IMG/VR virus record: IMGVR_UViG_3300031088_000782
Coordinates: 96,001-160,000 of that record
Direction: 5' to 3' (one strand)
Source of the DNA: a virus
Taxonomy: Duplodnaviria > Caudoviricetes
Length of the DNA stretch: 64,000 nt
Shown here one piece after another: positions 4,215-59,519 of this stretch (its first letter is position 1; the number at the start of each line of letters is the position of its first letter). The position numbers and the translations under genes are program-made. The notes beneath the pieces were generated by a model. That model made no database searches, had not been told where the DNA came from, and was given only the letters and a program-made list of their open reading frames with translations.

Positions 4215-4242
4215 TTTTGTATAGATAAAGGTGGGTTTAAGA

Positions 4243-6174
4243 ATGTTTGATGAAGATTTTGATAAGAATATTCCTGAAGAGCAGAAAGAGATTTTGAAGA
4301 GATTTCGAGAGGATCTTACTTCTCAACCTATTCGTTCTCTGAATAAAGAAGAGTCAGACATCTATGCTGGAGCTGTTTTTCGTGCTCAGCAGATACTTCC
4401 CTCTTTCCGTGACGCTTTGGCTGTTCTGAGTCCTTTCATGGATGCCACATGTTCAACTGCATACACAGATCAGTATGCTCGTGTGGGGCTTTCATACTGG
4501 TTCTTCTATCTTGCTGATGCTGAAACACGATCAATGGTTGTTCTTCATGAATCTATGCACATTCTCAACAGTCACTTCGCTCGTGCTGAAACACAAAAAG
4601 TGAAGCCACGTATGATGAATTATGCTGGAGACTTTGAGATTAATACTAATCTTTACACTCTGCCTACTATCAAAAATTCTCTTGAAAACTTTTTGATTCC
4701 TTCAAAGTATGAACTTCCTGATTTCAAGACTTTTGAGCAGTATGTTTCCATGATTAAAGACAAAATGGAAGAAATTTCAAAGGATTCAGGAAATCCAAGC
4801 GATGGGGCTGAAGAAATCGATCAGGCTTCACAAAACAACGATAGTCAAAGCGGATCGGATTCTTCTTCAGGTTCGGAAAGCGGAACTGATTCGTCTTCCT
4901 CAGATGCTTCTGGATCTGACAGTGCATCTTCTGATTCTCAACAGGGAAATGACTCTGAATCCAGCGAAAGCGGAAGCTCGTCAAGTGGAGAAGGCGGAAG
5001 TGAATCATCTGATGGTTCCGGTTCATCACAATCAGGCGATAATGGCGACTCACAAGGTGGTCAAGGATCTCAGCCTTCAGGTTATGGTAATTCCTATGAT
5101 GATTATGTTCGTAAAATGAATGGCGAAGATTCTGCGGGTGGAACTGGATCATTTGAAGATCTCCTTAATGAAGAAGAAGGAAAAGGCAAGTGTGACGGAA
5201 ATCATTCTAAAGATGGTAAAGGTGAACCTTGTGATGGATCTTGCGATCATTCTTCTGAAGGCGATAATGACGGAGAAGCAGACGGCGATAGCCAGGGAAA
5301 TAATGGAAATGGTGAGCCTGAGCCTAACTCTTCAATTGACAACTACAAGCGTTCAATGAATAGTGGTGGAGCAAAGAAAAAAGTTAATCCTCCTACACGT
5401 CATTGCGATGACAGCACTGTTAAGCGTTCTGAAGCGGCTGACAAAGCTGGAATTTCTAAAGTTTCTGACATTGAACAAAATATCGCACGAAACAACACTT
5501 CTGTTCGCATTGCTGAGGAGCTTAACAGTGGAGGTCGTGGTTCAGGAGCAAGCAATGATTTCTTGAAGCTTGCTCTTAAAAGAATGTCGCCACCTAAAGT
5601 TGATTGGCGAGATCTTTTCCGAAGGGCTGTTGCTAATGCTTATAGCGCAAGTATTATGGGACAATCATACACTTCTTATAAGCGTGTGAATAGGCGATAC
5701 AGTCAGGGATCAGTTATTTTCCCCGGTACTATTGATCATTCTCCTACTGTTACTTTTGCTGTTGATACTTCAGGTTCTATGGGACAAGAAGATTTCAGAA
5801 GGCTTCTTGCAGAAATTGAGGACATTATCAAAAATGCGGCACGTCAGAAGAATTCATTGAAAGTGTTCTCAGTTGATACTACAGTTAAAGGAATCGAACC
5901 TGTTTCTTCGGTAGATAAAATCAAACTTCGTGGTGGAGGCGGAACTGATATGAGCGTTGCCTTCGCTTATGTTAATTTGATGAAAAAGAAAGAAATGCCA
6001 AACATTGTTGTTTTGGGAACAGATGGTTACACAGAGTGGAGTTCTGTTGAAAGAGAGATTCGACAGGGAAGTTACCATGCAATCATTCTTGTCACTCAAG
6101 CGAATGCAATGAATAGTGTTCCCCAATCTCTTCACTCTGTCGCGGCTGTCATTGACATTTCAGAAGATAACTGA
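4243..6174 (+). CDS. metallopeptidase-vWA protein (DUF2201-like)
   Basis: HESMH (HExxH), NYAGDFEIN, long Ser/Gly/Asp linker, vWA MIDAS VDTSGSM, GGGGTD and TDGY; ORF track start is GTG 4231. Confidence 0.85.
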   Translation: MFDEDFDKNIPEEQKEILKRFREDLTSQPIRSLNKEESDIYAGAVFRAQQILPSFRDALAVLSPFMDATCSTAYTDQYARVGLSYWFFYLADAETRSMVVLHESMHILNSHFARAETQKVKPRMMNYAGDFEINTNLYTLPTIKNSLENFLIPSKYELPDFKTFEQYVSMIKDKMEEISKDSGNPSDGAEEIDQASQNNDSQSGSDSSSGSESGTDSSSSDASGSDSASSDSQQGNDSESSESGSSSSGEGGSESSDGSGSSQSGDNGDSQGGQGSQPSGYGNSYDDYVRKMNGEDSAGGTGSFEDLLNEEEGKGKCDGNHSKDGKGEPCDGSCDHSSEGDNDGEADGDSQGNNGNGEPEPNSSIDNYKRSMNSGGAKKKVNPPTRHCDDSTVKRSEAADKAGISKVSDIEQNIARNNTSVRIAEELNSGGRGSGASNDFLKLALKRMSPPKVDWRDLFRRAVANAYSASIMGQSYTSYKRVNRRYSQGSVIFPGTIDHSPTVTFAVDTSGSMGQEDFRRLLAEIEDIIKNAARQKNSLKVFSVDTTVKGIEPVSSVDKIKLRGGGGTDMSVAFAYVNLMKKKEMPNIVVLGTDGYTEWSSVEREIRQGSYHAIILVTQANAMNSVPQSLHSVAAVIDISEDN

Positions 6175-50521: not shown

Positions 50522-50689
50522 AGTGGATAGTATCATTGGGTGCTGTTTATCTTAAATAGTTAAGCTGACTATGCAGGTGAGACAGTATAAGATGTAGTTA
50601 CCACTATAAACAAAACTCCCTGATAAGTCTCAAGAGGTAGAGCTGGCAATACGCGTCCGGTTGTGGGTTCAAGTCCCACTCATAGGGAA
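50522..50689 (+). ncRNA. repeat unit 2: conserved stem motif + degenerate tRNA-like element
   Basis: Motif 50522-50612; tRNA-like 50617-50689. Confidence 0.55.
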
Positions 50690-53282: not shown

Positions 53283-53331
53283 CAAAAATTTCATAATAAT
53301 TAAAATATTTTTATAAAACTTTAAAAATGAG

Positions 53332-53404
53332 TTGACAACGAAATTTAGTTGTGTTAGTATTATATATATAAGCAACACAGCGGATTGAAAAGTTAATAGT
53401 GGAA
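53332..53404 (+). promoter_or_regulatory. sigma-A promoter + boxA-like leader
   Basis: TTGACA-17-TAGTAT; AACACAGCGGATTGAAAAGTTAATAGTGGAA at 53374-53404. Confidence 0.75.
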
Positions 53405-53410
53405 AATTTT

Positions 53411-53486
53411 AGGAATAATATGTTTTACTTTATATTTAAAAGTAAAGTATTAGGGTATATTTTAGGTTCGATTCCTATTATTCCTA
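53411..53486 (+). ncRNA. D-armless tRNA-like element
   Basis: AGGAATA/TATTCCT acceptor, T arm, one long central hairpin. Confidence 0.45.
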
Positions 53487-53493
53487 CGAGGAT

Positions 53494-53566
53494 CGAAAAG
53501 TCATGGGTTCGATTCCCATATAGTCCACATATTCATGGGCTATTGATGAAATGGTATCATATTTTG
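53494..53566 (+). ncRNA. circularly permuted tRNA-like RNA P1 (G3.U70, A73)
   Basis: CGAAA-AGTC-T arm-ATAGTCC-A-linker-GGGCTAT-D arm-TTTTG. Confidence 0.75.
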
Positions 53567-53628
53567 ACAGGACCGTGAAACTCGGCAAACTTAGTGAGAG
53601 GCTAAGGAAATAGATGCAAATTCTTTAT

Positions 53629-53703
53629 GGGGGTATGGCGCAATCTGGTTAGCGCATTTCGCTGATAACGAAAAGGTTCCTGGTTCAAATCCAGGTGCCC
53701 CTA
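53629..53703 (+). tRNA. trnI: tRNA-Ile(GAT)
   Basis: CT-GAT-AA. Confidence 0.93.
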
Positions 53704-53736
53704 CGAAACAAAGCTTCGCAACTTTGTTTAAATATT

Positions 53737-53909
53737 GGCTAAATGGTGTACAACATTTAGTTCAAACTATCAAAATAGACAGATCATCTATAAATGGTAG
53801 AATAAGTTTTGACATTCCAGGAGTCAGGCGGTTGCAGGTTCGAGTCCTGTCAGTTAGCACACAAGTTAATTGTAACTCAATAGGTTAGAGTTCCTGATGA
53901 ATGGTTTGT
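53737..53909 (+). ncRNA. permuted tRNA-like RNA P2 (YrlA-like architecture)
   Basis: 5' GGCTAAA hairpin; core 53824-53897 T arm, loop-closed acceptor, D arm; TCAGG/CCTGA stem. Confidence 0.78.
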
Positions 53910-53920
53910 TTAGAACTTTT

Positions 53921-53994
53921 GGCTTGCTATCCCAATTGGTAGAGGAAACGGATTCAAAACCCGTTCAGTCTGAGTTCGAGTCTCAGGTAAGCTA
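53921..53994 (+). tRNA. trnL: tRNA-Leu(CAA), short variable loop
   Basis: TT-CAA-AA; resembles the actinobacterial short-arm Leu(CAA) type. Confidence 0.92.
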
Positions 53995-53998
53995 CTTT

Positions 53999-54168
53999 GG
54001 CTAAACACGGTACCATGTTTAGTTCAACCCATTGGTCTAGAACAATGGAAGATAGTTATTATTAGATAATTGATTTTAGAGATCTGGGTTCAAGTCCCGG
54101 TGGCTCCCGCATGGGGGTTATGGAATAATTGGGAAATTCGCTTCATGAAATATTTGATAATAATTATT
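53999..54168 (+). ncRNA. permuted tRNA-like RNA P3 (same family as P2)
   Basis: 5' GGCTAAA hairpin; T arm 54084-54100, acceptor closed by GCAT, D arm; about 17-bp flanking stem. Confidence 0.75.
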
Positions 54169-54169
54169 A

Positions 54170-54243
54170 CAGGGCATAGGATAACTTGGCATTCCGTCTG
54201 GTTTGGGTCCAGAAGATTAGGGGTTCAAATCCCCTTGCCCTGA
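54170..54243 (+). tRNA. trnP: tRNA-Pro(TGG)
   Basis: C1-G72; TT-TGG-GT. Confidence 0.92.
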
Positions 54244-56964: not shown

Positions 56965-57038
56965 TACTGTGTAGTTTAATGGCAAAACACTAGGCTCTTA
57001 AAGCTTAGCATATAAGGTTCGAATCCTAATCACAGTTG
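56965..57038 (+). tRNA. degenerate tRNA with a 9-nt loop CTCTTAAAG
   Basis: Good D arm; CTAGG/CTTAG stem; mismatched T stem. Confidence 0.45.
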
Positions 57039-59409: not shown

Positions 59410-59450
59410 CTTTATTAAATTAAGAAATTTAATAAAAGTTACGAAATGAT

Positions 59451-59519
59451 TTGACAAGTTTGAAAAAATTTGTTAAGATTGTCAAAGTAACACAGCGGAT
59501 TGAAAAATTAATAGTGGAA
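59451..59519 (+). promoter_or_regulatory. sigma-A promoter + boxA-like leader
   Basis: TTGACA-17-TAAGAT; 31-nt motif 30/31 identical to 53374. Confidence 0.75.

Follow-up and report, generated by a model that had tools for sequence, protein, structure and literature searches.

Three tRNA-shaped RNAs in a phage tRNA operon resemble YrlA-type Y RNAs in an apparently Ro60-less genome

Introduction

Which RNAs fill the spaces between the transfer RNA (tRNA) genes at the head of a phage tRNA array, and are they remnants of tRNA genes or RNAs in their own right? The question is raised by a 64,000-nucleotide (nt) stretch of DNA, here called the window, which comprises bases 96001–160000 of the 309,534-base-pair (bp) virus record IMGVR_UViG_3300031088_000782 (Caudoviricetes), a record rated complete. 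Within 700 bases of this window, three elements, which we call P1, P2 and P3, are interleaved with tRNA genes in the order P1, Ile, P2, Leu, P3, Pro. A first, sequence-only reading had noticed the arrangement Ile-P2-Leu-P3-Pro and had proposed that P2 and P3 are the two tandem members of a new RNA family. The arrangement is as described. There are, however, three units rather than two, P1 having its core at 53493–53567, and the tRNA-like body appears to belong to a class that has already been described, permuted tRNA mimics embedded in tRNA arrays being found in other phages as well. We favour, with moderate confidence, the explanation that P1–P3 are genes for YrlA-class (Y-RNA-like) non-coding RNAs that mimic tRNA. 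Taken by itself, the part of this explanation that sees in them selected, structured RNAs of the YrlA type seems quite likely to be right; their mode of action as adaptors or decoys is put forward tentatively, by analogy. Coordinates are those of the window unless stated otherwise.

Structure of the modules

The modules were located by scanning for a 7/7 acceptor helix that directly follows a T arm and is closed by a loop of 3–12 nt, followed by two linker bases and a D arm of 4 bp whose loop contains GG. Exactly three of the 81 T-arm-like hairpins on the + strand carry the full T–acceptor–D module, namely those at 53503 (P1), 53834 (P2) and 54084 (P3). With shuffled flanks the mean was 0.03 modules, and a count of three was reached in 0 of 2000 shuffles. 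The parts of the three modules are as follows.

53487..53584, + strand: P1 permuted tRNA-like RNA, core 53493–53567, scoring 81 bits with the covariance model R2 (see below)
53487–90/53581–84 and 53493–98/53562–67, + strand: closing stems of P1, short and weak (6+4 bp)
53503–53519, + strand: P1 T arm, followed by the acceptor 53520–26/53537–43 and the D arm 53546–53560
53804..53918, + strand: P2 stalk and tRNA-like body; stalk 53804–19 with 53902–18, 5-bp anticodon-type stem 53824–28/53893–97
53834–50, + strand: P2 T arm, followed by the acceptor 53851–58/53865–72 with its 6-nt closing loop and the D arm 53875–91
54051..54168, + strand: P3 stalk and tRNA-like body; stalk of ~18 bp, 54051–68 with 54151–68
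54084–54100, + strand: P3 T arm, followed by the acceptor 54101–08/54113–20, which includes G3.U70, with its 4-nt closing loop and the D arm 54123–39

P1–P3 are tRNA-shaped and have no anticodon loop. Neither ARAGORN nor the Rfam tRNA model calls them; the Rfam model cyano_tmRNA matches the T arm and acceptor of P1 at 21 bits. U8, A14, G18G19, A21, G53, T54-T55-C56, A58 and C61 are present in all three. The sequence-only reading had described P2 and P3 as having a T arm, a 7-bp acceptor with an additional G-1:C73 pair, a closing loop of 6 or 4 nt and a D arm with GG, and this anatomy is correct; the two linker bases in both units begin with U8. It had also taken the additional pair for a His identity feature. 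Because this 8th acceptor pair (-1:73), which is G:C in P2 and P3, is U:A in P1 and C:G or U:A in the comparable elements of other phages, we would read it as a general helix extension and not clearly as a His mark. P1 combines G3.U70 with A73, and G3.U70 is found in P3 as well.

A long AU-rich stalk takes the place of the anticodon arm in P2 and P3. The minimum-free-energy fold of P2 (53705–53920; −57 kcal/mol, z = −4.0) consists of a first and a second hairpin and an internal-looped stalk that bears a cloverleaf minus its anticodon loop. Both hairpins recur in P3, whose AU stalk is 18 bp long (z = −3.6).

Conservation in related sequences

When the locus was compared with GenBank phages by blastn, tRNAs were the sole matches, and protein searches with the SNF2 helicase, the NlpC/P60 protein, RecG and the Clp-like ATPase retrieved no related phage. 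The invariant pattern of the P1 core had no match in IMG/VR, the JGI metagenomes or the GTDB genomes, and an exact-pattern scan of IMG/VR for hairpin 1 returned four chance matches, all within coding regions. Relatives of the locus were found in public sequencing runs (X3–X5), in all of which the P1 core is identical. X4, a farm-metagenome contig, spans 53646–54162 at ~90% identity and was rebuilt from a difference table that gives 29 of the 31 substitutions and all 6 deletions. X5, a bovine-metagenome contig, has 53755 joined directly to 54018, resulting in a hybrid unit of P2 hairpin 1 and P3 body without P2 and tRNA-Leu, formed when the two hairpin 1 copies recombined. Upstream of 53320, X5 continues with 1.6 kb unlike the window.

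The P2 and P3 cores of X4 show 10 changes, none of which breaks a pair: U53854-A53869 has become C-G, one G.U pair has become A-U, and the rest fall in loops. A double compensatory change is seen in the P2 stalk, where C53813-G53908 has become U-A, and overall three G.U pairs have become A-U. The distal stalks of P2 and P3 shift register in X4 with pairing retained. The relatives have other bases past 54162, which again find partners in the 5' strand and abut the next tRNA. The compensated stalk pair also bears on the sequence-only reading, according to which the 5' and 3' flanks of both units form a long stem. Such stalks exist in P2 and P3, but the pairing proposed for P2, CAAACTAT with ATGGTTTG, finds no support and is replaced by 53804–53819 with 53902–53918; the change of C53813-G53908 to U-A would break the C53763-G53908 pair of the rejected stalk, and 53767–53800 forms a local hairpin.

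Refolding of X4 P2 gave the same architecture at −53.2 kcal/mol with 48 of 57 pairs kept, compared with an average of −40.1 ± 4.5 kcal/mol for random mutants carrying an equal load of changes, 1% of which match the stability of X4 P2. Counting substitutions and indels, the changed positions amount to ~11% in P2, 7% in P3, 3.4% in the P1 region and 4% in tRNA-Leu, against ~30% in the 32-nt spacer after tRNA-Ile.

The three units were also compared with each other. Their alignment, made with Infernal, is the basis of the covariance model R2, which was built from P1–P3 alone; a MAFFT version of the three cores was discarded as structurally wrong. Paired bases occupy 93.9% of the pair cells in the R2 alignment, 14 of the 22 pairs differ on both sides, and slid controls were 31–49% paired. 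Because the relative X4 retains the folds through compensatory changes, P1–P3 are to be regarded, on comparative grounds, as selected RNA structures and not as tRNA debris.

Relation to YrlA and phage Y RNAs

According to Chen et al. 2014 (PMC4201824), YrlA carries GNCGAAN0-1G near its 5' end, the presumed Ro60 contact, and its gene is found no more than 4 kb away from Ro60, on the same strand. In other phages and in bacteria, RNAs of this design are free-standing and bound by protein. [quoted passage not shown] P1–P3 share this 7-bp stem with M. smegmatis YrlA. They have the module order T arm, closed acceptor-like stem and D arm, with the elbow nucleotides, and the flank-formed stem that encloses the module is present in P2 and P3, kept in X4, and weaker in P1 (6+4 bp).

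The sequence-only reading had recognised this order on a stalk as the YrlA architecture and had proposed a comparison with the Rfam model. The Rfam YrlA model (RF02553) indeed matches P2 over model positions 23–89, the tRNA-like module, at 31.4 bits (E = 1e-4), below its gathering score of 69, and this is the one noteworthy Rfam match apart from tRNA; P1 and P3 have no match to the YrlA model. The Ro60-adjacent Y RNAs of the phages Bxz1 and Faust score 32.5 bits (positions 23–87) and 36.5 bits, also below 69. Since these are genuine phage Y RNAs, a true phage YrlA therefore scores like P2.

Comparable scores are obtained in the opposite direction. Applied to its own genome, R2 finds P1–P3 only, at 77–87 bits, with a tandem-tRNA background of at most 28 bits. 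Its top match in Bxz1 is the same Ro60-adjacent Y RNA (31.8 bits), which lies 260 nt upstream of the Ro60 gene (TROVE 78 bits). Streptomyces phage Faust yields two elements at 36 and 34.5 bits inside a tRNA array, one of them 34 nt past tRNA-Ile(GAT). These Faust Y RNAs are located 1.7 and 0.6 kb upstream of a Ro60 gene of 557 amino acids on the same strand, and the second has G3.U70 and A73. A further match in Bxz1 (NC_004687: 95755–95832) is an unannotated permuted tRNA-like RNA with a long stalk that fills the spacer between tRNA-Met and tRNA-Cys; it is probably a third Y RNA of this phage. It lies 34 kb from the Ro60 gene and has AGGCCGA in common with both Ro60-adjacent Y RNAs. The uncultured 735-kb phage LR756501 contains, on the minus strand at 364392–364461, a clean module 4 nt upstream of tRNA-Ala, with an 8-bp acceptor, a 3-nt closing loop and a 5-bp closing stem. 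No TROVE match was found in the LR756501 genome, which would make this module a second Ro60-less case.

P1–P3 thus resemble YrlA and the Y RNAs of Bxz1 and Faust in their (variable)-T-acceptor stem-D order, the enclosing stem formed by the flanks, the retained elbow nucleotides, the cross-scores both ways, and, in both phages, the site among tRNA genes. They differ from them in that their genome has no detectable Ro60, that they have no GNCGAAN0-1G, that three copies lie in one operon, that P2 and P3 have two additional hairpins on the 5' side, in which a stem is conserved and loops are palindromic, and that the stalks are very AU-rich. A PhageMaP preprint (PMC11482910) suggests that Y RNAs sit among phage tRNA genes and reports that Bas63 gp130, a Ro60-like protein of Felix O1-type phages, counters the Ppl defence. 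Unlike these phages, the present genome has no homologue of Felix O1 ORF42, and R2 scores at most 23 bits in the Felix O1 genome. P1–P3 are apparently a Ro60-less variant of the known YrlA/phage Y-like kind of RNA, so that their tRNA-like body would not constitute a new family.

Search for a Ro60 partner

That the window holds no Ro60 gene, as the sequence-only reading stated, can be extended by sequence searches to the whole 309-kb genome. TROVE had no match at E ≤ 1 in its six frames, with Bxz1 (78 bits) and Faust (68 bits) as positive controls. The Ro60 proteins of Faust and Bxz1 (tblastn, phmmer), DUF2828, a homologue of Felix O1 ORF42 and a small Ro60 profile made from the Faust, Bxz1 and Felix O1 proteins likewise gave no match in the whole genome, and RtcB was not found in it; the Ro60 negatives rest on sequence methods, which a very divergent ring protein could escape, and 52 open reading frames of 380–700 amino acids were not screened by fold. 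The best weak profile match is a DUF7487/Mom-GNAT protein. The vWA proteins of the genome, a DUF2201 metallopeptidase-VWA protein and two short open reading frames, are not Ro60-like. The first of these, a protein of 647 amino acids encoded at 4231–6174, has a DUF2201 metallopeptidase and a C-terminal VWA-like domain; its PHROGs family label, 'HNH endonuclease', looks like a misnomer.

The 5' hairpins of P2 and P3

Upstream of their stalks, P2 and P3 each carry two hairpins, which are new relative to the YrlA kind.

53735..53765, + strand: P2 hairpin 1, a GGCUAAA...UUUAGUU stem with two G.U pairs and an 8-nt loop with the palindrome UGUACA; unchanged in X4
53767..53800, + strand: P2 hairpin 2, kept in X4, where the G.U pair 53797/53770 has become A-U
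53997..54027, + strand: P3 hairpin 1, stem as in P2 and unaltered in X4, loop palindrome GGUACC, which is GAUAUC in X4
54029..54048, + strand: P3 hairpin 2, with an 8-nt loop and the palindrome UCUAGA; unchanged in X4 and X5

The shared start GGCTAAA-N12-TTTAGTTCAA, to which the sequence-only reading had drawn attention, occurs at 53737 and 53999, twice only in the window and nowhere else in the genome. The double compensatory change that had been noted in it is real: the inner two stem pairs of hairpin 1 are TG/CA in P2 and CA/TG in P3. With two G.U pairs in the stem of hairpin 1, an RNA structure is favoured over a DNA palindrome. Three of the 8-nt loops (53746–53753, 54008–54015 and 54035–54042) have the form N-hexamer-A, in which the hexamer is self-complementary (TGTACA, GGTACC and TCTAGA). 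The X4 substitutions G54010A and C54013U restore the loop palindrome, though the two bases are unable to pair within one loop. Pairing of these loops between molecules is one possibility.

Discussion

Partnership with Ro60 is what defines a Y RNA. Three tRNA mimics under purifying selection in a genome with no recognisable Ro60 would mean either that phage RNAs hijack the Ro60 of the host or that the module has a job independent of Ro60, and the phage offers a clean system in which to ask what the tRNA-shaped module binds. It adds to the evidence that the tRNA arrays of large phages carry cargo other than tRNA, which is relevant to annotation and to the study of phage counter-defence, given the report of a phage Ro60-like protein that overcomes a defence system of bacteria (PMC11482910).

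The explanation we favour, that P1–P3 encode Y-RNA-like tRNA mimics, can be set out as a sequence of steps. P1–P3 would be transcribed together with tRNA-Ile, tRNA-Leu and tRNA-Pro from a promoter at 53332–53360 and excised by the enzymes that trim the neighbouring tRNAs, with RNase P producing their 3' ends by cutting at the 5' end of the next tRNA, and 3' trimming of the preceding tRNA producing their 5' ends. The resulting L-shaped body could be bound by proteins that read the tRNA elbow and acceptor. If the RNAs act as Y RNAs do, as adaptors or decoys, such a protein would be contacted by the tRNA-shaped end, and the stalk or the 5' hairpins would hold a second partner. As the phage encodes no recognisable Ro60, this partner might be the Ro60/Rsr of the host or a different protein. 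Having no anticodon loop, P1–P3 as folded here could not be decoys for anticodon nucleases.

Several observations weigh against this explanation. No Ro60 is detected by sequence within 4 kb or anywhere in the 309-kb genome, and a regular-expression search over 53284–54170 found no GNCGAAN0-1G; the closest look-alike is the GGCUAAA of hairpin 1, which has one mismatch and lies in a local hairpin, not in a terminal stem. The cloverleaf of P3 is not its minimum-free-energy fold, at a cost of 3.7 kcal/mol (−50.6 free versus −46.9 constrained), and the random-mutant test is weak for P3 (6%). The comparative support comes mostly from the single relative X4, with 2 of its 31 substitutions unlisted, and the covariation within P1–P3 could partly mean that they originated separately from different tRNAs, instead of reflecting selection for the permuted shape. 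P2 is missing from the X5 lineage and is hence dispensable there at least. Finally, the locus was in no RNA run among the public runs searched.

The first alternative is compatible with a Y-RNA-like nature of P1–P3 and concerns their fate. They might be two-piece, CCA-tailed and possibly aminoacylated tRNA mimics, in which RNase P cuts the acceptor loop, the 3' tail is trimmed, the CCA enzyme of the phage adds CCA, and AlaRS charges P1, and perhaps P3, via G3.U70. The 7-bp acceptor stem of P1–P3, which is the named reason for cleavage and CCA addition in M. smegmatis YrlA (PMC4201824), speaks for it, as do G3.U70 and A73 in P1, G3.U70 in P3, and the occurrence of both marks in the second Faust Y RNA; moreover, CCA is encoded by only 3 of the 66 tRNAs of the phage, which encodes a CCA-adding enzyme. 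Acceptor loops of just 4–8 nt that are closed by the extra -1:73 pair should, however, be an obstacle to RNase P, position 73 is not followed by an encoded CCA, and G.U is common in AU-rich helices, so that G3.U70 may be a legacy of a tRNA-Ala ancestor. We consider this fate unlikely.

Improbable, in our view, is the proposal that P1–P3 act in cis on the tRNA transcript, for instance by docking RNase P or RNase Z, by insulating the folding of adjacent tRNAs or by protecting the 5' and 3' ends, and have no function once released. They do fill their spacers exactly, they lie in a promoter-led tRNA operon, and the array has many other structured spacers. Yet most of the other ~60 tRNAs of the array do without such modules, and a full elbow with every tertiary-contact nucleotide and a conserved, sequence-specific hairpin exceed what an insulator would require; as noted above, other phages and bacteria use this design for protein-bound RNAs that stand on their own.

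Slightly less probable still is a version of the two-piece proposal in which the RNAs work independently of Ro60: RNase P would open the acceptor loop, the phage CCA enzyme would add the tail, and P1, perhaps P3, would be alanylated and serve as a sink or decoy or as a non-translational donor of amino acids. Their targets would be host factors whose site of action on tRNA is the 3' end or the elbow rather than the anticodon, such as defence toxins that modify the CCA end, and the hexamers UGUACA, GGUACC/GAUAUC and UCUAGA would allow the RNAs to pair with one another by loop–loop kissing.

Debris, which the sequence-only reading had named as an alternative, would consist of neutral remnants of tandem-duplicate tRNAs truncated on both sides, for example by rearrangement driven by homing endonucleases. 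T arm, acceptor 3' strand, spacer, acceptor 5' strand and D arm are indeed what is seen when looking across two tandem copies of one tRNA, and the modules probably arose from such copies; HNH and GIY-YIG endonuclease genes are present inside the array, and X5 shows that the locus undergoes recombination. The compensatory changes in X4 argue against decay, as do the cores without a pair-breaking change, a divergence 3–10 times below that of the neighbouring spacer, stalks that pair the 5' and 3' flanks and still pair after re-registering in X4, and the common geometry of three independent sequences. We regard debris as very unlikely.

Genuine tRNA genes that are circularly permuted, as in a red alga, or two-piece genes permuted like those of transfer-messenger RNA (tmRNA), rejoined or used in translation, can be dismissed as scarcely credible despite the matching gene order and the weak, 21-bit cyano_tmRNA match to P1, because no anticodon loop or U33 context can form at the junction, where the stem continues into the stalk, there are just ~30 nt after the D arm with no tag reading frame or pseudoknots, Rfam tmRNA scores of 14.6–21.1 bits compare with gathering scores of 47–70, and the phage has a normal one-piece tmRNA elsewhere in its genome. 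The likeness to both systems is nevertheless worth stating. The two-piece tmRNA genes of alpha-proteobacteria and cyanobacteria share with the modules the order T arm, 3' acceptor strand, linker and 5' acceptor strand, and P1 has the alanine marks G3.U70 and A73; unlike them, P1–P3 have no tag reading frame, pseudoknots or encoded CCA. The permuted tRNA genes of Cyanidioschyzon merolae, compared from the literature only, likewise place the 3' half of the tRNA first, with the 5' half following across the acceptor end. Splicing at a bulge-helix-bulge junction gives them back a normal anticodon loop; P1–P3 have neither this loop nor this junction.

Genomic context

The phage genome has a G+C content of 35% and, according to ARAGORN, 66 tRNA genes and a tmRNA gene, every one on the + strand, with 57 of the tRNAs packed into the last 15 kb of the window. 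The features that surround P1–P3 are listed below.

53332..53360, + strand: sigma-70-type promoter at the operon head; TTGACA, 17-nt spacer, TAGTAT, extended -10 TG; 10/12 positions match
53374..53404, + strand: 31-nt leader, with a 30/31 copy at 59489–59519 behind a second promoter
53629..53704, + strand: tRNA-Ile(GAT), between P1 and P2; Rfam tRNA 69 bits
53706..53729, + strand: AU-rich spacer hairpin 3' of tRNA-Ile; stem kept and loop freely variable in the relatives
53921..53995, + strand: tRNA-Leu(CAA), between P2 and P3; absent from X5 along with P2
54170..54244, + strand: tRNA-Pro(TGG); an RNase P cut at its 5' end would form the 3' end of P3

Because the promoter and the repeated leader precede P1, the series P1-Ile-P2-Leu-P3-Pro is predicted to be the head of a tRNA operon, in which the leader would mark the start of the transcription unit. 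Homology with the relatives X4 and X5 starts at 53320, just upstream of this promoter. A gap of 44 nt separates P1 from tRNA-Ile downstream of it, the gap between P2 and tRNA-Leu is 2 nt, and P3 occupies its whole inter-tRNA spacer to within 1 nt on each side. A promoter-like match within P2 (53776–53803) was taken as chance. The gene directly downstream of P3 is that of an ordinary HNH homing endonuclease, which is unlinked to P3 in X4. The second promoter (TTGACA, 17-nt spacer, TAAGAT) and the leader copy behind it, together at 59450–59519, stand directly ahead of tRNA-Tyr.

A TilS-like PP-loop enzyme, an ADP-ribosyltransferase and the CCA-adding enzyme are encoded beside the array (genome positions 160798–169567). 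The gene for the first lies ~170 nt past a tRNA(CAT), and the other two lie among outlying tRNA genes.

Other unusual elements are found in the array. Between the leader and P1, at 53412–53485, lies an odd tRNA-like element with a 9-bp acceptor (AGGAATAAT/ATTATTCCT), an 8-bp hairpin with a 7-nt loop and a good T arm, without a D arm; the Rfam tRNA model gives it 15.8 bits. About 10 more canonical T-arm hairpins occur outside the called tRNAs, at 50667, 55810, 57224, 57336, 59863, 59990, 60080, 61109, 61183 and 62019. None builds a permuted module, and they may be parts of other non-standard tRNA-like RNAs. A weak ARAGORN tRNA at 56966–57037 carries TTA as its anticodon, so that it would read the stop codon TAA, and reaches 31 bits with the Rfam tRNA model, barely above threshold. 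As for the host, the PASTA, G5 and NlpC/P60 domains encoded by the phage suggest a Gram-positive bacterium.

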